A stretch of 64,000 nucleotides of DNA from Candidatus Kaiserbacteria bacterium CG10_big_fil_rev_8_21_14_0_10_59_10 (GCA_002773285.1 PFBM01000021.1:14312-78311), one strand, 5' to 3'; numbered from the stretch's first letter, positions 2,982 through 23,464 are shown. Numbers and translations are program-made. Notes: a model not told the origin generated them from the sequence alone.

Positions 2982-5076
2982 TCTTGGTGCCCTCCATCAT
3001 GAGTTTGCCGCAGTCCTTGCATATATTGCCAGTCGGACGTGCTTTCATCGTGAATTTGCATTCAGGATAATTTGAGCAGGCGAAAAAAGGCCCGAAGCGC
3101 CCGCGCTTCTCCACAAGCTGCCCCTTGCCGCATGACAGGCATGCCACGCCTGTGGAGTTTTGCGAATTTTCGTCCCGGCGCACGTATTTGCACTTCGGGT
3201 AGTTGCTGCATGCCACAAAACGCCCGAAGCGCCCTTCCCGCTCGATGAGCTTTCCGTCCTTGCACTCGGGGCACGGCTCGCCGAGGTCTTTCGGCGGTTC
3301 GATGATGCTGCCGTCCTCCTTGCGAGCGCCAAGGCATGTTGGAAAATTGGAGCAGCTCATAAAGCGCCCCGAGCGCGAGAGTTTGTATACCATTGGCGCG
3401 CCGCAAAGCGGACAGGGAAATTCCTCAGGTGCGTCGCCCATGTTGGTCAATTTCTCGATCTTCTCCTTGCCCTTAACCGCCTTTGCAAACGGTGCGTAGA
3501 ACGCGTGCAGCGTCTTTTCGTATTCGCGCGTGCCGGAAGCGATGTCGTCCAGCTCATTCTCCATTTCGGCCGTAAAGGTATCGCTTATATAGTCCGCGAA
3601 GTGATCTTCTATGAATGAGCTGACGACATCTCCCGTGTGCGTTGGAATAAGCGTGCGCCCCTGCTTTTCGACATACCCGCGGTCTTCAAGCGTTTTAATA
3701 ATGGAAGCGTACGTGGACGGCCGGCCGATGCCGCGCTTCTCAAGCTCTTTCACCAGCCCCGCCTCGCTGTAGCGCGAGGGCGGCTGGGTCGCCTTCTCTT
3801 CCGAGCGCGCTTCGACGAGCGTGAGCTCCTCCTCTGGGTTCGCTTTTGGCAGCTCCACGTCCTCACCGCGCGCCGCCGGGTCGGCCTTTAGCCAGCCCTC
3901 GAAAACGACGCGCGAGCCGGTGGCTGAAAAGTCGGGGATCGGCGAGCCCTCAGTGTTTGCGACTATCTTCGTGCGCAGAATCTTCGCATCTGCCATCTGG
4001 CTAGCGAGCGAACGCGCGCGTATAAGCGCGTACAATTTCTTTTGCTCATCGGTTGAGCCGAGGGAGCGCTTTGACGCGTCGGTGGGGCGGACTGCCTCGT
4101 GCGCTTCCTGCACGCTTTTTGAGCGGGACTTGTACTGGCGCGTAGAGAGCATCTCCGCGCCATACTCGCTCGACACGACGCGCGCAAGCTGCGTGAGCGC
4201 CTCACGCGAGAGAGTGGGGGAGTCGGTGCGCATGTAGGTGATGTGCCCCGCTTCGTACAATTTTTGCGCGATGCGCATCGTGCGCGACGGAGAGTAGCCG
4301 AGTCGCGTCGAGGCGGTCTGCTGGAGCGTTGAAGTGGTGAACGGCGCGCGAGGACTGCGGGATTGCTCCGACTCGTCAACGGAAACGACGCGCCACTGCC
4401 CCGCGCGCGCCTCTGCGACGATGCGCTCAGCTTCTTCGGCGCTTTTAGGCTCCTCCACGCACGTGGCGACAAAGCGTTCCTTCCTTGATGTTTCCAGCTC
4501 CGCTTCAAGCACCCAAAACGCCTCGGGCACGAATGCGCGTATCTCGCGCTCGCGCTCCATGAGTATGCGAAGCGCGGGAGATTGGACGCGGCCTGCCGAG
4601 AGGCCGTAACGGACTTTCTTCCATATGAGGCCTGAGAGGTCGTAGCCGAACAGGCGATCCAGCACGCGCCGTGCCTCCTGCGCTTTTACGAGCTGCATGT
4701 CGACGGCGCGCGGGTGCTGCAACGCTTCCTGGACCGCGCGTTCGGTTATTTCGTTGAACACGATGCGCTTCGGCTTGTTCAGTCCGATAGTGTCGGAGAC
4801 GTGCCACGCGATTGCTTCGCCCTCACGATCGGGGTCGGTGGCGAGGATGACTTCATCCGCCTTTTTTGCGGCGCGCTCCAAATCATGAATAACCCGCTCT
4901 TTCTCGGGCACGACCCGATAGCGCGGCACGAAACCGCCTTCGATATCGACCGCATCCTTGTTAGATTTCGGCAGGTCGCGAATGTGGCCCACGGATGCGC
5001 GCACCTCGTATCCTTTGCCGAGGTACTTCTCAATCGTCTTGGCCTTGGCCGGCGACTCTACTATTACAAGCTTCAT
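2923..5076 (-). CDS. topA: DNA topoisomerase I with C-terminal zinc-ribbon repeats
   Basis: MKLVIVESPAKAKTIEKYLGKGYEVRASVGHIRDLP Toprim start (internal Met 16 of the ORF-track ORF 2923..5121). Multiple C-terminal CxxC...CxxC zinc fingers. Confidence 0.9.
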   Translation of the reverse strand: MKLVIVESPAKAKTIEKYLGKGYEVRASVGHIRDLPKSNKDAVDIEGGFVPRYRVVPEKERVIHDLERAAKKADEVILATDPDREGEAIAWHVSDTIGLNKPKRIVFNEITERAVQEALQHPRAVDMQLVKAQEARRVLDRLFGYDLSGLIWKKVRYGLSAGRVQSPALRILMEREREIRAFVPEAFWVLEAELETSRKERFVATCVEEPKSAEEAERIVAEARAGQWRVVSVDESEQSRSPRAPFTTSTLQQTASTRLGYSPSRTMRIAQKLYEAGHITYMRTDSPTLSREALTQLARVVSSEYGAEMLSTRQYKSRSKSVQEAHEAVRPTDASKRSLGSTDEQKKLYALIRARSLASQMADAKILRTKIVANTEGSPIPDFSATGSRVVFEGWLKADPAARGEDVELPKANPEEELTLVEARSEEKATQPPSRYSEAGLVKELEKRGIGRPSTYASIIKTLEDRGYVEKQGRTLIPTHTGDVVSSFIEDHFADYISDTFTAEMENELDDIASGTREYEKTLHAFYAPFAKAVKGKEKIEKLTNMGDAPEEFPCPLCGAPMVYKLSRSGRFMSCSNFPTCLGARKEDGSIIEPPKDLGEPCPECKDGKLIEREGRFGRFVACSNYPKCKYVRRDENSQNSTGVACLSCGKGQLVEKRGRFGPFFACSNYPECKFTMKARPTGNICKDCGKLMMEGTKTIPERCSDKSCANHNPHKK

Positions 5077-13648: not shown

Positions 13649-14419
13649 CTAGTGTGCGAGGGTAGCGTAGACCACCAAGCGATGGTCATAGGTGCCGAGG
13701 CTGCGAACGTACGACCCCGCGCAGGTTATTACGTGCAGGTGTTTTCCGCCGTCGTTCCTGTTGAAGAGCATATCGGACGTCAGATCCGACAGACGGTGTG
13801 TCTTGGTATGCGTCACTACATACCGAAGCCGGCTGCCGTCTTCAGCTGTCACATATATCTCGTCGCCGGCCTTGACGCGGTGCAGCTCGGAAAACGCGGC
13901 ATATACGTGCGCTGCGAGCACCGCACTGCCCGTGTTGCCGGGCAGGACCCCGTACTTATACCAACCGACGTTATCGGTGCGCCCATCGGGCACATCCATG
14001 TCTCCCTTGTCGTTAATGCCGACCTGCTGGATGGGTGAATTGAGGCCGATGGCCGGCATCTGGACACGTACGGGATATGTGGAAGAGGTAGCGGATAGGG
14101 GTGACGGGCTTGAAGGAACCGGTGTCGCACTCACACCCTCCTCTACTTTTCCTTCCGGAACTGCTGCTCGTGCGACAGATAACGCGACCTCGAGCGTGCC
14201 GTTGGGTGGCGACGAGGCCCCATCCAAAGGCGGCTCGTGTGACGGAATCTCAGCGATGAATGGGGGCAGGTCTAGGGCAATGCCGGAGCGAGCATCATTG
14301 GTAGGAAGCGTTGCGCTGCCGCTACCGGGGTCAAGCAGCGCTGCGTGCGCGCTTGCACCTAGAACGGCGACGCATCCGCATGCAGCTAACAATAGTACTG
14401 TACGCATGAACCGATGCAT
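13649..14419 (-). CDS. Sortase-family transpeptidase (class E/F-like), N-terminal signal/TM
   Basis: Catalytic His in LAAHVYAAF, TLxTC-type Cys motif HVITCAGSY, conserved Arg in RLVVYA. Confidence 0.8.
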   Translation of the reverse strand: MHRFMRTVLLLAACGCVAVLGASAHAALLDPGSGSATLPTNDARSGIALDLPPFIAEIPSHEPPLDGASSPPNGTLEVALSVARAAVPEGKVEEGVSATPVPSSPSPLSATSSTYPVRVQMPAIGLNSPIQQVGINDKGDMDVPDGRTDNVGWYKYGVLPGNTGSAVLAAHVYAAFSELHRVKAGDEIYVTAEDGSRLRYVVTHTKTHRLSDLTSDMLFNRNDGGKHLHVITCAGSYVRSLGTYDHRLVVYATLAH

Positions 14420-16397: not shown

Positions 16398-16655
16398 ATG
16401 ATCCGTATGACCATGCTCAAAAGAATTATAAGCGTGTCTGCTCCTCTTGCAGCCCTTGCAGCCGCGGGTATTGCGAATGCGCAAACAGCGACACAGACCG
16501 CGACCACAGCAACGCCTACACCCGGCATTCCGGAGACCGGCGTAGGCGGGGATATGGTGATGAATCTTGTCCTATTGGGCGCAGCAGCGCTCATAGCAGG
16601 CGCAGGCGCCATGTACCTGTATGTGACGCGCTCGCGCGGGGCAGACAGGGTGTAG
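16398..16655 (+). CDS. Mini sortase substrate: signal peptide + Thr/Ala/Pro-rich 15-aa stalk + IPETG sorting motif + TM + RSRG tail
   Basis: MIRMTMLKRIISVSAPLAALAAAGIANA signal; QTATQTATTATPTPG stalk; IPETG; GVGGDMVMNLVLLGAAALIAGAGAMYLYV hydrophobic; TRSRGADRV positive tail. Sits 32 nt upstream of a sortase gene. Confidence 0.6.
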   Translation: MIRMTMLKRIISVSAPLAALAAAGIANAQTATQTATTATPTPGIPETGVGGDMVMNLVLLGAAALIAGAGAMYLYVTRSRGADRV

Positions 16656-16686: not shown

Positions 16687-17427
16687 ATGAGGATACGTAC
16701 GCACAGCAGAGAAGTGGCAGCGGCAGTTCTTGCCGCTGCCATTCTCGTAGGAGGCACGGCGGCGGTCCGCACGCTGCTGGTTCTGCCTGCCTCGGCGCTT
16801 CTCGTGCCGTACCCAACGGAAGCTCATGAGAAGAACGACGCGTTCGGGCTCATACGGTTTGTTACAGAGACAGCAACGCCGTTTAGCGGTGCGCAAGGCG
16901 CGTCGCGAGCGGAGAGACCGTTCCGGGCGCGGCCGGCTGCCTCAGAGAGGAATGGCGCATCGGAGGCGATGGGAACGGCGCAGCCCATGCGGCTCCAAAT
17001 ACCGCATATACGAGTCGACGCGCCGGTCGTGAGGGTCGGCATCAACGGGGTTGGCAATATGGCAACGCCATCGTCGTTCAGCGAGGTCGGCTGGTATCGG
17101 CATGGCCCGCGACCCGGCGAGCCGGGAAGCGCCGTCCTTGCCGGGCATGTAGACAATGCACTCGGGTTTCCCGGCGTCTTTAAGAGATTGGGTGAGTTGC
17201 GGGAAGGAGATGTGCTGTATATCACTGTGGCTGATGGCACTGCTCTGCGATTTGTTGTCGCCTCTGTGGAAACGCATCCATATAATGACGCACCTACGAA
17301 CGAGATTTTTTCGACGGGCGGCGCGCCGCGTGTCACGCTTATCACCTGTGCCGGCTCCTGGCTGCGCAGTGCCGGCACATACGATACGCGGCTCGTCGTC
17401 ACGGCATACTTGGCGGATGATAAGTAA
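16687..17427 (+). CDS. Sortase-family transpeptidase (paralog of 13649..14419)
   Basis: LAGHVDNA (His), TLITCAGSW (Cys), RLVVTA (Arg). N-terminal TM anchor. Confidence 0.8.
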   Translation: MRIRTHSREVAAAVLAAAILVGGTAAVRTLLVLPASALLVPYPTEAHEKNDAFGLIRFVTETATPFSGAQGASRAERPFRARPAASERNGASEAMGTAQPMRLQIPHIRVDAPVVRVGINGVGNMATPSSFSEVGWYRHGPRPGEPGSAVLAGHVDNALGFPGVFKRLGELREGDVLYITVADGTALRFVVASVETHPYNDAPTNEIFSTGGAPRVTLITCAGSWLRSAGTYDTRLVVTAYLADDK

Positions 17428-19493: not shown

Positions 19494-19934
19494 ATGGATT
19501 CACGAAGCGGCGTCTATGTGATAGCCGGCTTTGCGGCACTCGCGCTTCTCCTTGCGCTTGCCGCGTACCACGTATTCTTTCGGGACGGGGACGAAGCCGC
19601 GTTTAACGCGCTTTCTCTCGAGGAGCGCATGGCTATGTGCCGCTCTCTTCCGAACGGTTCTTCGCATGAAGTGCGCACTGCGGAGCGCTTGTTCATCAAC
19701 CTCCCCGAGGATATATATCCATACGCACATCGCTCTTTTGTATTCGAGGGGGCCAGGGCCGCGCTCGTGCCGAGCGGCGAAGCGCTCTATATAGACGAGT
19801 CGTTCAAGCGCGGCCACTGCGTCACGCACCTGTACGAATTTAGCGGCGAGGGCAGCGTGGAGCTTGTGGTATCGAGCGCACGCCATGCACTGCCCGAATA
19901 TCGGGTATATGTGAGTGTTGTCGCTAACGAGTAG
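19494..19934 (+). CDS. Membrane-anchored hypothetical protein (N-terminal TM + about 110-aa extracytoplasmic domain), immediately upstream of otsA
   Basis: VYVIAGFAALALLLALAAYHVFF TM. No family assigned. Confidence 0.45.
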   Translation: MDSRSGVYVIAGFAALALLLALAAYHVFFRDGDEAAFNALSLEERMAMCRSLPNGSSHEVRTAERLFINLPEDIYPYAHRSFVFEGARAALVPSGEALYIDESFKRGHCVTHLYEFSGEGSVELVVSSARHALPEYRVYVSVVANE

Positions 19935-20102
19935 TGTGTGCATCACGCACCCCTGCTGCACAATGCGCCGCTCCTCCACTCGCGCTCTAGCCCATCGAAG
20001 CTCATCCACAGAGAGAGCTGGCAGCCACTGCGCTGTATGATACAGTGCTGCGGTACGAGGCCCTGCCTCCTGCCGCCAAAGGGCTGGCAGCATACGCATG
20101 CC

Positions 20103-22331
20103 ATGCGACAAGTATTGATCATTGTGGCTGTTGCCGTTACAGCGGTGACCGGCGTGGTCCTACTCTTTACGCACGTGCAGGTGCGCACCGAAAGCGACGT
20201 ACTCGCACGAGACCTGGAGCAGCGCACCCGCATACTTGCGGAAAGTTTGCAGGAATCGGTCGAGCCCGCATACATCGTGCAGTCGCAGAGCGCGCTTCAG
20301 CGTATCGTCGAGCGCTTTGCCAACCGCCAACCTCTCGTCGGGGTAGCCGTGGTCGACCGCGCAGGCACGGTCGTTGCGGCGTCCGAACATGTCTCGGAGG
20401 CGGGGGTAGTCGGCGTCGTGCCGACCGTCTCAGCGCTGCAGGGTGAAAGCGGTGGGAGCTTCTTGCGTACTGCGGAAGCGACCATGTATGTGTATGCGGT
20501 GCCGCTTACGGATGAAACAGGCGAAGTGACCGCGGCGATGGTCGTCGTGCAGGACGCCTCCTACATAGACGAGCGCGCGTACAGCACATGGTGGAACAAT
20601 ATCGCCCGCCTTCTTGCGTACGTGCTGCTTTTTGGCGCTGCGGTGGCGCTTCTGGTGCGGTGGGTCGTACTGCGGCCGCTCATGGCCCTCGCTGCGACGG
20701 TCAAATCGGCGCGCACGGGACGCGGCGGCCTAAAGGCATTGGAGCCGCTGAAGCAGAACTTATTTTTCATGCCGCTTGCGCGCGAGATATCGGAGATGAC
20801 GAAGAGTCTCGGACAGGCGCGGCATGCGGCGAGCGAGGAGGCGCGCCTCCGGCTTCAAAAAATAGATACACCGTGGACGGCGGAGCGTTTGAAGGAATTT
20901 ATCCGGACGTATTTAAAAGGCCGTCCCATCTACGTAGTGTCGAATCGCGAGCCATACGCGCATACGCGACGCGGCAACGAGATACTGTGGTCCGTCCCTG
21001 CAAGCGGCATGGTGACGGCGCTTGAGCCCGTGATGGCCGCGGCGGGCGGGATGTGGATAGCGCACGGCGGCGGAGATGCGGACAGGGAGGTGACGGACGA
21101 GAGCGGCAAGGTCGCGGTACCGCCGGATGACCCGAAGTACACGCTTAAGCGCATATGGCTCGAGCCCGAAGAAATAAAAGGCCACTACGACGGCTTTTCC
21201 AACGAGGCGCTGTGGCCGCTATGCCACACCGCGCACACGCGCCCGATATTCCGCAATGAGGATTGGGCGATGTACAAGCGCGTCAATGGGAAATTTGCCG
21301 AACAGATACTCTCTGAGCTGAAAGACGTTCAGCGCCCCATCATCCTCATACAGGACTACCATTTCGCGCTCCTGCCGCAGATGCTGAAAGACGCGCGCCC
21401 CGATGCGCAGATAGGCATCTTTTGGCACATTCCCTGGCCGTCACCAGAGGCGTTCAGCATATGCCCGTGGCGCAAGGAGCTTTTGGAGGGCATGCTTGGC
21501 GCCGATATCGTGGGCTTCCATACGCAGCAGTACTGCAACAACTTTCTCGATACCGTAGGCAAGGAGATAGAATCACTCATCGATTTCGAACAGTTCGCCG
21601 TGACGCGCGACGACCACGTGTCGTACATCAAGCCATTTCCCATATCGATAGCATTCACGAACGGCGCCGAACGCGACGAGGCCGACAAGCCCGATAAAAA
21701 GGTGCTCTCCGTTCTCGGCATAAAGACCGAGCGATTCGGGCTAGGCGTCGACCGAATGGATTATACGAAAGGCATTCTTGAGCGCTTTAAGGCCATTGAA
21801 TTTTTGCTCGAGAAGCATACGAAGTACAGAGAGAAGTTCACGTTCCTGCAGATCGCGCCACCTTCGCGCGAGGGTGTCGAGAAATACCGAGAATACGGCG
21901 CTGCAGTGAAGCAGGAAGCCGATCGCATCAACAAGCGTTTCGGCAAGAACGGCTGGCGACCCATCGTTCTCGAGACGCGGCACTACACCCACAGCGAGCT
22001 CGAACCGCTCTACCGGCTCGCGGACGTGTGCGTCGTAACCTCGCTGCACGACGGCATGAACCTTGTCGCCAAGGAGTTCGTCGCCGCCCGCGACGACGAA
22101 TCAGGCGTGCTGGTGCTCTCGCAGTTCACGGGCGCCGCCCGTACGCTCAAAGGTGCGCTCCTTGTCAATCCATATAGCGCGGAGGAAACCGCAGAGGCGG
22201 TGCATAAGGCCCTCTCCATGTCGCCGACCGAGCAGTACCGGCGCATGCGCGCCATGCGCAATACGATCAAGGACTACAACGTATACCGCTGGTCCGCGGA
22301 GCTCATTAAAGCGGTCGCCAGCATCGCGTAA
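20103..22331 (+). CDS. otsA: Alpha,alpha-trehalose-phosphate synthase (GT20) fused to an N-terminal TM / periplasmic sensor-like domain / TM / HAMP-like linker
   Basis: GT20 core from IYVVSNREPYAH...GGLV.ALEPV...WIAHGGG...FSNEALWPLCH to the C-terminus. N-terminal 300 aa: TM1 LIIVAVAVTAVTGVVLLF, about 190-aa extracytoplasmic domain, TM2 LLAYVLLFGAAVALLVRWVVL, then HAMP-like RPLMALAATVKSARTGRGGLKALEPL...AREISEMTKSL. Confidence 0.85.
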   Translation: MRQVLIIVAVAVTAVTGVVLLFTHVQVRTESDVLARDLEQRTRILAESLQESVEPAYIVQSQSALQRIVERFANRQPLVGVAVVDRAGTVVAASEHVSEAGVVGVVPTVSALQGESGGSFLRTAEATMYVYAVPLTDETGEVTAAMVVVQDASYIDERAYSTWWNNIARLLAYVLLFGAAVALLVRWVVLRPLMALAATVKSARTGRGGLKALEPLKQNLFFMPLAREISEMTKSLGQARHAASEEARLRLQKIDTPWTAERLKEFIRTYLKGRPIYVVSNREPYAHTRRGNEILWSVPASGMVTALEPVMAAAGGMWIAHGGGDADREVTDESGKVAVPPDDPKYTLKRIWLEPEEIKGHYDGFSNEALWPLCHTAHTRPIFRNEDWAMYKRVNGKFAEQILSELKDVQRPIILIQDYHFALLPQMLKDARPDAQIGIFWHIPWPSPEAFSICPWRKELLEGMLGADIVGFHTQQYCNNFLDTVGKEIESLIDFEQFAVTRDDHVSYIKPFPISIAFTNGAERDEADKPDKKVLSVLGIKTERFGLGVDRMDYTKGILERFKAIEFLLEKHTKYREKFTFLQIAPPSREGVEKYREYGAAVKQEADRINKRFGKNGWRPIVLETRHYTHSELEPLYRLADVCVVTSLHDGMNLVAKEFVAARDDESGVLVLSQFTGAARTLKGALLVNPYSAEETAEAVHKALSMSPTEQYRRMRAMRNTIKDYNVYRWSAELIKAVASIA

Positions 22332-22333
22332 CC

Positions 22334-23107
22334 ATGTTGAGCGCCGCGCGGCACATCGATGAAATAGCGAGGCGCGTGAGGCGTGCGGGCGGCGCACTCT
22401 TGTTCCTTGATTTTGACGGCACGCTTGCGGAGATCGCTACGACGCCGGAGTCCGCGCGCATGAGCGCCCGAACGCGGCGCGCGCTCAAGGCGTGCGTTGC
22501 GCGATACCGCGTTGCAGTCATTAGCGGGCGGGCGCTCGCGGACGTCCGCAGAAAGGTGGGTATGCGCACGGTGGCCTACGTCGGCGGCCACGGAACGGAA
22601 TACAGCATTGGCCGTCTGCGGGGCGTGTCGGGACTGCCTGCCGCTCTTCGCGCGTCACTCCGTGACGCGGCACGGCGCTTTCTGCCATTGTGCAAGGAAT
22701 ACCCGGGATTGCGCATCGAGCGTAAACCTTCGTCCGTTTCGGTACACTACCGCCGGCTGGAGCCGCGCGCGCTCCGCTCATTCGCGCGAATAGCGCGGCG
22801 GCTATGCACGGATATAGCGGCCGAAGGGTCGTTACGTATTATGTTCGGGAAAAGGGTCCTTGAATTTATGCCCGCTATCGGATTTGGGAAAGGGCATGCA
22901 GTGGGCCTCTTGCGGCGCGAGTTGGACCCTCGCCGCACACTGCCGGTCATATATATCGGGGACGATACCACGGACGAGGAGGCATTTCGCGCACTTCCGC
23001 GCGAGATTACCGTACGCGTGGGCGTGCGCCGCAGCAGCGCCGCACGGTACGTTCTCCGCAGGCGCGCCGACGTCGACCTGCTTCTGGAGCGGCTTGCCAC
23101 CTTGTAG
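22334..23107 (+). CDS. otsB: Trehalose-6-phosphate phosphatase (HAD-IIB)
   Basis: LLFLDFDGTLAEIATTPESA (DxDGT motif I); GKGHAVGLL; IYIGDDTTDEEAF (motif IV). Confidence 0.8.
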   Translation: MLSAARHIDEIARRVRRAGGALLFLDFDGTLAEIATTPESARMSARTRRALKACVARYRVAVISGRALADVRRKVGMRTVAYVGGHGTEYSIGRLRGVSGLPAALRASLRDAARRFLPLCKEYPGLRIERKPSSVSVHYRRLEPRALRSFARIARRLCTDIAAEGSLRIMFGKRVLEFMPAIGFGKGHAVGLLRRELDPRRTLPVIYIGDDTTDEEAFRALPREITVRVGVRRSSAARYVLRRRADVDLLLERLATL

Positions 23108-23221
23108 AGGCGAGCGCACGCCCGTGCGCAGCTGTGCATAACTTGCACCGAACGGTCGACATGCGTGTAAAAATATAGACAAGGGTCGATGTTACCGTTA
23201 ATTCGTGCGCACATTGCACTT

Positions 23222-23464
23222 ATGAAATATTTACACATTGCGACATTTTCGCTCGTCATCATCGGCGGTGTTAATTGGATGCTTCTCGCGCTTACCGGTT
23301 GGGAGATAGGAGCGCTCTTTGGCGGAATGGACGCCCTGCTATCCAAAGCGATTTATGTGCTGGTGGGTCTTTCGGCAGTGTACCTCGCTGTCATGCACAA
23401 GCGTGCATGCCGCGAGTGTTCTGTTGAGGAGCAACATTCCGCACCCATGGGAGCGGCGATGTAG
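23222..23464 (+). CDS. DUF378-family small membrane protein
   Basis: MKYLHIATFSLVIIGGVNWMLLALTGWEIGALFGG...AIYVLVGLSAVY matches DUF378-like architecture. AT-rich promoter-like region upstream. Confidence 0.6.
   Translation: MKYLHIATFSLVIIGGVNWMLLALTGWEIGALFGGMDALLSKAIYVLVGLSAVYLAVMHKRACRECSVEEQHSAPMGAAM

Follow-up and report, generated by a model that had tools for sequence, protein, structure and literature searches.

The window analysed here is a 64,000-nucleotide stretch of DNA from Candidatus Kaiserbacteria bacterium CG10_big_fil_rev_8_21_14_0_10_59_10 (GCA_002773285.1, PFBM01000021.1:14312-78311), and all positions are counted from its first nucleotide. Four genes lie on the + strand within positions 19494-23464: a gene for a 146-amino-acid (aa) protein, a long open reading frame (ORF) at 19938-22331, and genes for proteins of 257 aa and 91 aa. 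Pfam or NCBIfam families could be assigned to three of the four, namely trehalose-6-phosphate synthase (TPS), the trehalose-6-phosphate phosphatase OtsB and DUF378. Our subject is the TPS, the only GT20 gene found in the window, in which the enzyme is preceded in the same polypeptide by two transmembrane (TM) helices, an extracytoplasmic domain and a HAMP-like segment; we refer to it here as the sensor-TPS. The gene, the spacer in front of it and the parts of its product are as follows.

19935-20102, + strand: non-coding spacer 5' of the TPS start, 168 nt (codon log-likelihood negative in all three frames)
20103-22331, + strand, stop codon included: sensor-HAMP-GT20 gene for a membrane-bound trehalose-6-phosphate synthase of 742 aa (ORF, homologue starts and codon statistics)
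20112-20177, + strand: first TM helix (TM1), aa ~4-25
20181-20597, + strand: single-Cache/PDC (PAS-like) extracytoplasmic domain, WalK-like, aa ~27-165
20598-20666, + strand: second TM helix (TM2), aa ~166-188
20670-20822, + strand: predicted divergent HAMP, aa ~190-240, with a first amphipathic helix (AS1, P192-G206), a variable connector and a second amphipathic helix (AS2, from near E228) (PDB profile, Pfam in relatives, conservation and AlphaFold2 model)
20823-20927, + strand: output linker, aa 241-275, with a signalling-helix-like AxEEARxR segment, a W258-T259 hinge and a helix (260-271) leading into the first GT20 strand
20928-22328, + strand: GT20 (OtsA-type) catalytic domain, aa 276-742 (PF00982, TIGR02400 and a match to 5jij)

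The start of the gene required some care. An identical (100%) Candidatus Kaiserbacteria protein is present in public annotation under the name 'trehalose-6-phosphate synthase', where it is called at 764 aa with a start 22 codons upstream of ours (20037-20102). The sequence comparisons support ATG 20103 (MRQVLIIV...) as the start, since all homologues begin at an equivalent M(R/K)xx followed by a hydrophobic stretch, since 19935-20102 is non-coding-like in its codon statistics, and since the residues added by the longer ORF or by the 764-aa call are without conservation in the homologues. The closest relative (locus L001, 72% identity) has a 743-aa ORF that starts at the equivalent position. 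We therefore rejected both longer starts, GTG 19938 and ATG 20037, and the start in the public annotation is probably mis-set; an earlier note on this DNA, which had been made from the sequence alone, is corrected as to the start codon in the same way. No sigma-70-like promoter (scanned for on this strand), terminator or Rfam family was detected in the 168-nt spacer.

The hydropathy profile of the 742-aa protein has exactly two TM peaks, at aa ~4-25 (peak 2.96) and aa ~166-188 (peak 2.39), so the two helices that the earlier note placed on either side of an extracytoplasmic domain are indeed present, while two of its lengths need revision: the ectodomain is ~140 aa (aa ~27-165) and not ~190 aa, and the GT20 domain begins at residue ~277 and not ~320. 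Basic residues are grouped after TM2 (R186, R191, K201, R204, R207 and K211). The N-terminus lies inside (N-in) and the C-terminus in the cytoplasm, and this is the placement that a nucleotide-sugar-dependent enzyme requires. From the N-terminus, then, the chain runs through TM1, an extracytoplasmic single-Cache domain and TM2 into a probable divergent HAMP, and from there by way of a conserved helical linker to GT20 in the cytoplasm.

The AlphaFold2 model (mean predicted local distance difference test score, pLDDT, of 87.1 over the full length and 88.7 over the N-terminal 275 aa) has TM1 at the beginning of a long helix (2-58), whose further part is the N-terminal helix of the ectodomain. This is followed by a five-stranded, antiparallel, PAS-like sheet and by a C-terminal helix that is continuous with TM2 (helix 153-205). 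A TM1-continuous helix and a five-stranded sheet held between two TM helices are the marks of a Cache-domain fold, and the sensor-TPS has both.

None of the Cache-clan Pfam models matches the window protein above threshold: with a cut-off of 27 bits, Cache_WalK scores 18.9 and sCache_like 18.2, and there are further sub-threshold matches to CHASE8 and dCache_1. Its relatives score more strongly: SMP_2, which is a member of the Cache clan (PMC4822843), is matched in 35 of 49 (6e-7) and dCache_1 in 12 of 49 (best 4.8e-8), and Cache_WalK, sCache_3_2 and CHASE8 also occur among their matches. A profile built from 29 N-terminal sequences matches crystal structures of the Staphylococcus aureus WalK extracellular domain with E values of 6e-5 to 5e-4. 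The best Foldseek match of the N-terminal model is a full-length Bacillus subtilis WalK model (9a5d), aligned over all 275 columns with an E value of 4e-10 and a TMq of 0.66. When individual members were compared with NCBIfam models of full-length kinases, 18 of 29 matched WalK (best 1e-10) and 18 of 29 CreC, with AtoS (nine), DgcN/YfiN (seven) and DcuS (five) following. From these results we conclude that the N-terminal 240 residues are homologous to a sensor-kinase input module. The kinase-type input topology that the earlier note described is thus upheld, and the Cache- or CHASE-type fold that it proposed to look for is present as sub-threshold Cache matches in the window protein, stronger ones in its relatives and WalK by profile.

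One relative deserves separate mention. P0122, a 913-aa protein from a Logan contig, carries ~170 extra N-terminal residues with weak YtjB and YfiR-associated-kinase-like matches, and in this stretch the sensor segment may be duplicated or present in tandem. Of all single sequences, P0122 has the best match to WalK (4.6e-11).

The segment that follows TM2 was harder to classify. Pfam HAMP does not match the window protein even at an E value of 10, nor any of 49 full-length relatives at an E value of 1. When the isolated aa 186-275 segments of 35 relatives were searched, HAMP was the commonest family (6 of 35), every match being sub-threshold, with a best E value of 0.0012; the best single-sequence match, again that of P0122, has an E value of 0.0011 and reaches 19.7 bits against a gathering score of 25. 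When a profile of the linker segment was compared with all PDB sequences, the first seven places went to the HAMP domain of Af1503 (E 0.028-0.11), in alignments that run from end to end and pair profile positions 3-53 with residues 4-54 of that domain, and HAMP-EnvZ chimeras rank next. The full N-terminal profile also reaches the TM2-HAMP region of Tsr (E 0.36), and the Foldseek alignment to the full-length WalK model takes in the HAMP region. In position and signature the segment is as expected of a HAMP: TM2 ends at ~aa 188 and is followed by a conserved proline at 192, and P192, G206 and E228 are each at least 80% conserved. P192 and G206 lie 14 aa apart in each of 78 sequences compared, as in the Af1503 alignment, while the connector is longer than usual, at 17-26 aa, and differs in length between sequences. 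The AlphaFold2 model of the region is a helix-loop-helix (helix 153-205, a loop and helix 220-252). These statistics are individually weak and mutually consistent, and we conclude from them that the segment is likely a genuine but divergent HAMP. The earlier note had read a HAMP-like linker at this place; its reading holds only as to a divergent HAMP, on the strength of the Af1503 profile matches, the six relatives and the P/G/E residues, the window protein itself having no Pfam match. That both the Cache and the HAMP parts fall under the Pfam cut-offs is why the database name is merely 'trehalose-6-phosphate synthase'.

Conservation is highest just beyond the HAMP. Across phyla, the N-terminal segments with the lowest entropy are AS2 (224-240), the AxEEARxR helix (241-253), the W258-T259 hinge and the helix at 260-271; the output linker is the most conserved N-terminal part (entropy 1.22 bits), with W258, R262 and L263 invariant, and the most variable segments are a putative lid at aa 94-116 and the HAMP connector. 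Spacing is constrained too. The distance from I155 to P192 is 37 aa without exception in the 78 sequences and that from W258 to S280 is 22 aa in all 49 full-length ones, and E228 and W258 are separated by 30 aa in Patescibacteria and by 29 aa elsewhere. We infer from this conservation that the helical register, which is fixed between the ectodomain and HAMP by way of TM2 and again between AS2 and the first β-strand of GT20, may constitute a mechanical signalling path.

The catalytic domain matches PF00982 over aa 277-738 (E 3.7e-122, profile positions 4-471 of 473), and its best PDB match is the OtsA of Mycolicibacterium thermoresistibile (5jij, 7.8e-82); that of Escherichia coli (1gz5) is matched at 4.5e-70. 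It misses the equivalog cut-offs for OtsA (TIGR02400, 451 against 564.85 bits; PRK14501, the bifunctional synthase/phosphatase, 484 against 634; PRK10117, 284 against 759), and OtsA is still its best-scoring function (451 bits, against 314 for GgpS). The motifs SNREP, DYH, GVDRxDYTKG, APPSRE and DGMNLVAKE align with those of the M. thermoresistibile enzyme and of a fungal Tps1, and the substrate and catalytic motifs are invariant or nearly so in the 49 relatives. The Gly-Gly loop reads Ser-Gly, its second glycine (G302) being invariant. As far as these motifs can tell, the GT20 domain looks catalytically competent.

This arrangement is not peculiar to the window, as hundreds of homologues share it as a whole. 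The best 120 matches to the full-length query are 729-798 aa long, cover 97-100% of it at 55-72% identity, and include among those named Kaiser-, Doudna- and Taylorbacteria and other Parcubacteria/Patescibacteria. Searched alone among 1.84 billion representatives, the N-terminal module retrieved 688 clusters at 50% identity with E values of 1e-3 or lower, 269 of them at 1e-10 or lower, and named sources outside the Patescibacteria include Acidobacteriota/Terriglobia (a 761-aa protein), Elusimicrobiota, Omnitrophica and deltaproteobacterial metagenome-assembled genomes. A scan of genome collections with the single protein returned one locus, and taxonomic breadth was taken from the protein searches instead. 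The sensor-TPS design is widespread in uncultured bacteria and common among the Patescibacteria homologues; the earlier note had called for a survey of GT20 proteins for N-terminal TM/HAMP extensions, and in these searches the architecture recurs across several phyla. The module also occurs with another enzyme. P0161 (690 aa; locus L002, 3373-5445) joins TM-Cache-TM-HAMP to a YbdK/GCS2 carboxylate-amine ligase, with 32% identity to aa 3-233 of the sensor-TPS, that is, up to the end of AS2. This protein, known from a single 6.9-kb metagenomic contig, suggests that TM-Cache-TM-HAMP may be a portable input module.

The sensor-TPS gene has the following neighbours.

19494-19934, + strand: orphan single-TM protein, 146 aa (one N-terminal TM helix; coding-like codon usage)
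22334-23107, + strand: otsB, trehalose-6-phosphate phosphatase, 257 aa (PF02358, 1.3e-31; TIGR00685, 131.8 bits against a cut-off of 68.05)
23189-23464, + strand: DUF378 two-TM membrane protein, 91 aa (PF04070, E 2.5e-14)

We compared this neighbourhood with 11 related loci, which together with the window make nine Patescibacteria loci and three from outside the Candidate Phyla Radiation (non-CPR; L003, L008 and L009). In the window, otsB is separated from the TPS stop codon by 2 nt, in keeping with the adjacency stated in the earlier note, and its translation carries the HAD motifs DFDGT and GDDTTD. A phosphatase gene stands 3' of TPS in nine of nine Patescibacteria loci. It is otsB in the window, L001, L004/L005, L006/L007 and L011, and a gene of the inositol-monophosphatase family (PF00459) in two Parcubacteria/Kaiserbacteria loci, L010 (6303-7028) and L012 (6207-6983), where it may have replaced the trehalose-6-phosphate phosphatase non-orthologously, or may hint that the product is a different one.

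The phosphatase is followed by DUF378 in four of the nine Patescibacteria loci (the window; L001, ~3486-3698; L010, 7131-7358; L012, 7093-7296), at 55-60% identity, and this downstream protein is the recurrent membrane neighbour of the sensor-TPS. The earlier note had instead drawn attention to the small membrane protein encoded upstream. A single-TM ORF is there, 168 nt from the TPS start, but it is not a conserved partner: it belongs to no Pfam or NCBIfam family, its only match among 5.8 billion proteins is one that is 99% identical, and it is absent upstream of TPS in all 11 related loci. The gene is probably real but lineage-specific, and not part of the sensor-TPS system; being an orphan and not syntenic, its product was rejected as a partner of the WalH/WalI kind. 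Both GC skew and AT skew are negative at 19500-19999, unlike in all flanking + strand genes, and since this shift coincides with the orphan gene a recent insertion is possible.

Several other arrangements were seen at related loci and elsewhere in the window. The Kaiserbacteria locus L011 (4001-8990) carries the sensor-TPS, otsB, a GH63/trehalase-like hydrolase and a ROK sugar kinase, a cluster that looks like a compact trehalose make-and-break cycle. In another Kaiserbacteria lineage a gene for an 88-aa PQ-loop protein (SemiSWEET-like, by a weak match) lies ~30 nt 5' of the sensor-TPS (L004, 4702-4968; L005, 1989-2255). Upstream in the window, a sortase gene (16687-17427) is directly preceded by an 85-aa ORF (16398-16655, + strand) with a signal peptide, a Thr/Pro-rich stretch, an IPETG sorting motif, a hydrophobic helix and an RSRG tail, and which, judged by these features, is likely a minimal sortase substrate; the opposite strand carries a second sortase homologue, 44% identical, at ~13655-14074 (- strand).

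Taken together, the architecture described above makes it reasonably probable, in our judgement, that the sensor-TPS is a one-component transmembrane receptor-enzyme whose sensor and HAMP modules allosterically control trehalose-6-phosphate synthesis. Like other HAMP receptors the protein would act as a dimer. A change at the ectodomain or membrane would be transmitted down TM2 and converted by the HAMP bundle, and the AS2/'EEARLR' helix, followed by the W258-T259 hinge, would relay the signal to the first GT20 β-strand, which carries SNREP with the arginine that binds glucose-6-phosphate. There it could alter the closure of the GT20 domain, or the geometry of an oligomer, and so change the rate of trehalose-6-phosphate synthesis, with trehalose subsequently released by OtsB. 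The outcome would be a stress protectant controlled independently of transcription. As the cue, stress on the envelope, osmotic stress or desiccation are the likeliest candidates, together with a signal derived from the cell wall, as for WalK. Because the pocket and lid are not conserved, a general signal of the envelope, osmotic or desiccation kind seems likelier than one specific small ligand.

Several points weigh against a regulated receptor-enzyme. HAMP falls under the Pfam gathering score in every member, and the PDB matches have E values of 0.03-0.1. The structural models are monomers, the four-helix HAMP bundle and the dimer being assumed, and the best Foldseek target (9a5d) is an integrative/predicted model itself. 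The putative pocket lid (aa 94-116) is variable in length, is the least conserved segment and is the least confident in the AlphaFold2 model, and its poor conservation makes a shared small-molecule ligand doubtful. No phosphatase gene adjoins TPS in the three non-CPR loci. Finally, all named members come from metagenome-assembled genomes of uncultured organisms, no cultured organism being seen among them.

The strongest of the other explanations, which we consider unlikely but by no means negligible, is that the N-terminal module is a membrane tether or scaffold that merely anchors and dimerises the synthase without stimulus-dependent control, its Cache and HAMP parts being relics of a kinase ancestor. 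Trehalose might in this case be made beside the membrane that it protects, or close to a protein that transports or forms a channel, for instance DUF378 or a SemiSWEET. The poorly conserved pocket and lid, in which no ligand-binding motif is evident, would fit a tether, as would the divergence of the HAMP and the recurrence of small membrane proteins nearby (DUF378 in four loci and the PQ-loop protein in L004 and L005). A simple anchor, however, needs neither a folded ectodomain nor a HAMP signature, nor exact spacing across phyla at 25-45% identity, and conservation peaks in the HAMP-to-enzyme linker, not in the TM helices. The fixed register, too, is predicted by a mechanical signalling path and not by a mere anchor.

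It is improbable, in our estimation, that the product is something other than trehalose-6-phosphate, with the regulated GT20 domain making another glucosyl-phosphate compound such as a glucosylglycerol-phosphate-like solute or an envelope precursor, a proposal that is in any case compatible with a receptor-enzyme. The missed OtsA equivalog cut-offs, the Ser-Gly loop and the inositol-monophosphatase-family phosphatase that stands in place of OtsB in L010 and L012 would all suit a different product. Against this, the OtsA model scores far above that for GgpS, the motifs for glucose-6-phosphate and UDP-glucose are retained, a trehalose-6-phosphate phosphatase gene adjoins TPS in the window, L001, L004-L007 and L011, and L011 also carries the trehalase-like GH63 protein and the sugar kinase. 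As for an artefact, in which the N-terminal region is a separate gene joined by frameshift or misassembly or in which translation starts after TM2, we regard it as refuted: many database relatives are indeed short (280-520 aa), but these are contig-end or visibly frameshifted fragments that still enter the GT20 start (SNREPY), at least 120 independent proteins have the full length of ~740 aa, the matching ORF of the closest relative is 743 aa long, and throughout the N-terminal part the codon statistics resemble those of coding sequence, so that the fusion proposed in the earlier note stands.

If the sensor-TPS is such a receptor-enzyme, it would provide a direct and experimentally tractable link from an extracytoplasmic or membrane signal to osmolyte production, one in which enzyme activity itself is the read-out of HAMP signalling, and it would extend the outputs of HAMP and Cache domains past kinases, chemoreceptors and second-messenger enzymes. 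In bacteria the control of compatible-solute synthesis is usually ascribed to transcription (e.g., RpoS control of otsBA) or to the effects of ions on soluble enzymes. Parcubacteria have few regulators and an episymbiotic lifestyle, and as the sensor-TPS is a frequent form of OtsA among their homologues, a better knowledge of it would bear on the stress survival of uncultured bacteria. More tentatively, and with somewhat less than even confidence, we suggest that it could be the founding, and a widespread, example of a class of transmembrane receptors that gate a primary metabolic enzyme directly by HAMP: an envelope or cell-wall cue, received through a WalK-like Cache, would switch trehalose synthesis post-translationally, genome-reduced Patescibacteria would gain a transcription-free stress response, and a wider family of receptor-metabolic enzymes would exist, of which the YbdK/GCS2 fusion may be another. 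The case also illustrates that sub-threshold sensor domains can hide behind a plain enzyme annotation, where they are invisible to standard domain annotation.

With respect to known systems, we found no account of an OtsA that is membrane-bound or fused to a sensor in the searchable full-text literature, outside of which most subscription journals fall; the earlier note likewise knew of no characterised sensor-HAMP-OtsA. The outputs tabulated for Cache domains include no glycosyltransferases (PMC4822843). The soluble OtsA enzymes (E. coli, 1gz5/1uqu; M. thermoresistibile, 5jij) share with the sensor-TPS the GT20 fold, the substrate motifs and the pairing with a trehalose-6-phosphate phosphatase gene, but lack its 275 extra N-terminal residues (two TM helices, Cache and HAMP) and the serine that it has for the first loop glycine. 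Trehalose enzymes have been tied to stress sensing and to operon-encoded membrane proteins before: Thermoproteus tenax has a TPSP-GT-mechanosensitive channel operon (PMC3634074), to which DUF378 is a loose parallel, and the OtsA of Arthrobacter forms an osmotic-stress-linked cytoskeletal element by self-assembly (PMC5685639). In these, however, regulation proceeds through separate proteins or through the self-assembly of a soluble enzyme, with no covalently fused transmembrane sensor/HAMP module.

The closest likeness on the sensory side is to the WalK (YycG)/CreC kinases, which have the same TM-sCache-TM-HAMP input; in the 18 of 29 members that match the WalK model, the match extends over the ectodomain, TM2 and HAMP. 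In WalK the sCache is the part needed for the response to peptidoglycan endopeptidase activity (PMC7299342). Unlike these kinases, the sensor-TPS has no cytoplasmic PAS, no dimerisation and histidine phosphotransfer (DHp) domain and no ATPase domain, and no conserved partners of the WalH/WalI kind are found at its loci. No match to HisKA or HATPase_c was found in the sensor-TPS, whose C-terminal 467 aa are GT20, and because the DHp and ATPase domains are lacking it is not a kinase; its output is a metabolic glycosyltransferase. In its proposed working it resembles DgcN/YfiN (TM-periplasmic PAS/CHASE8-TM-HAMP-GGDEF), a one-polypeptide receptor in which HAMP drives a dimeric catalytic domain directly, and to the N-terminus of which there are weak matches (E 4.5e-5 for the window protein; 7 of 29 members). 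HAMP-linked class III adenylate cyclases (e.g., Mycobacterium tuberculosis Rv3645) are HAMP-coupled receptor enzymes too. Whereas DgcN/YfiN and the HAMP cyclases have second messengers as their outputs, that of the sensor-TPS is a primary metabolic enzyme making the precursor of a bulk solute.

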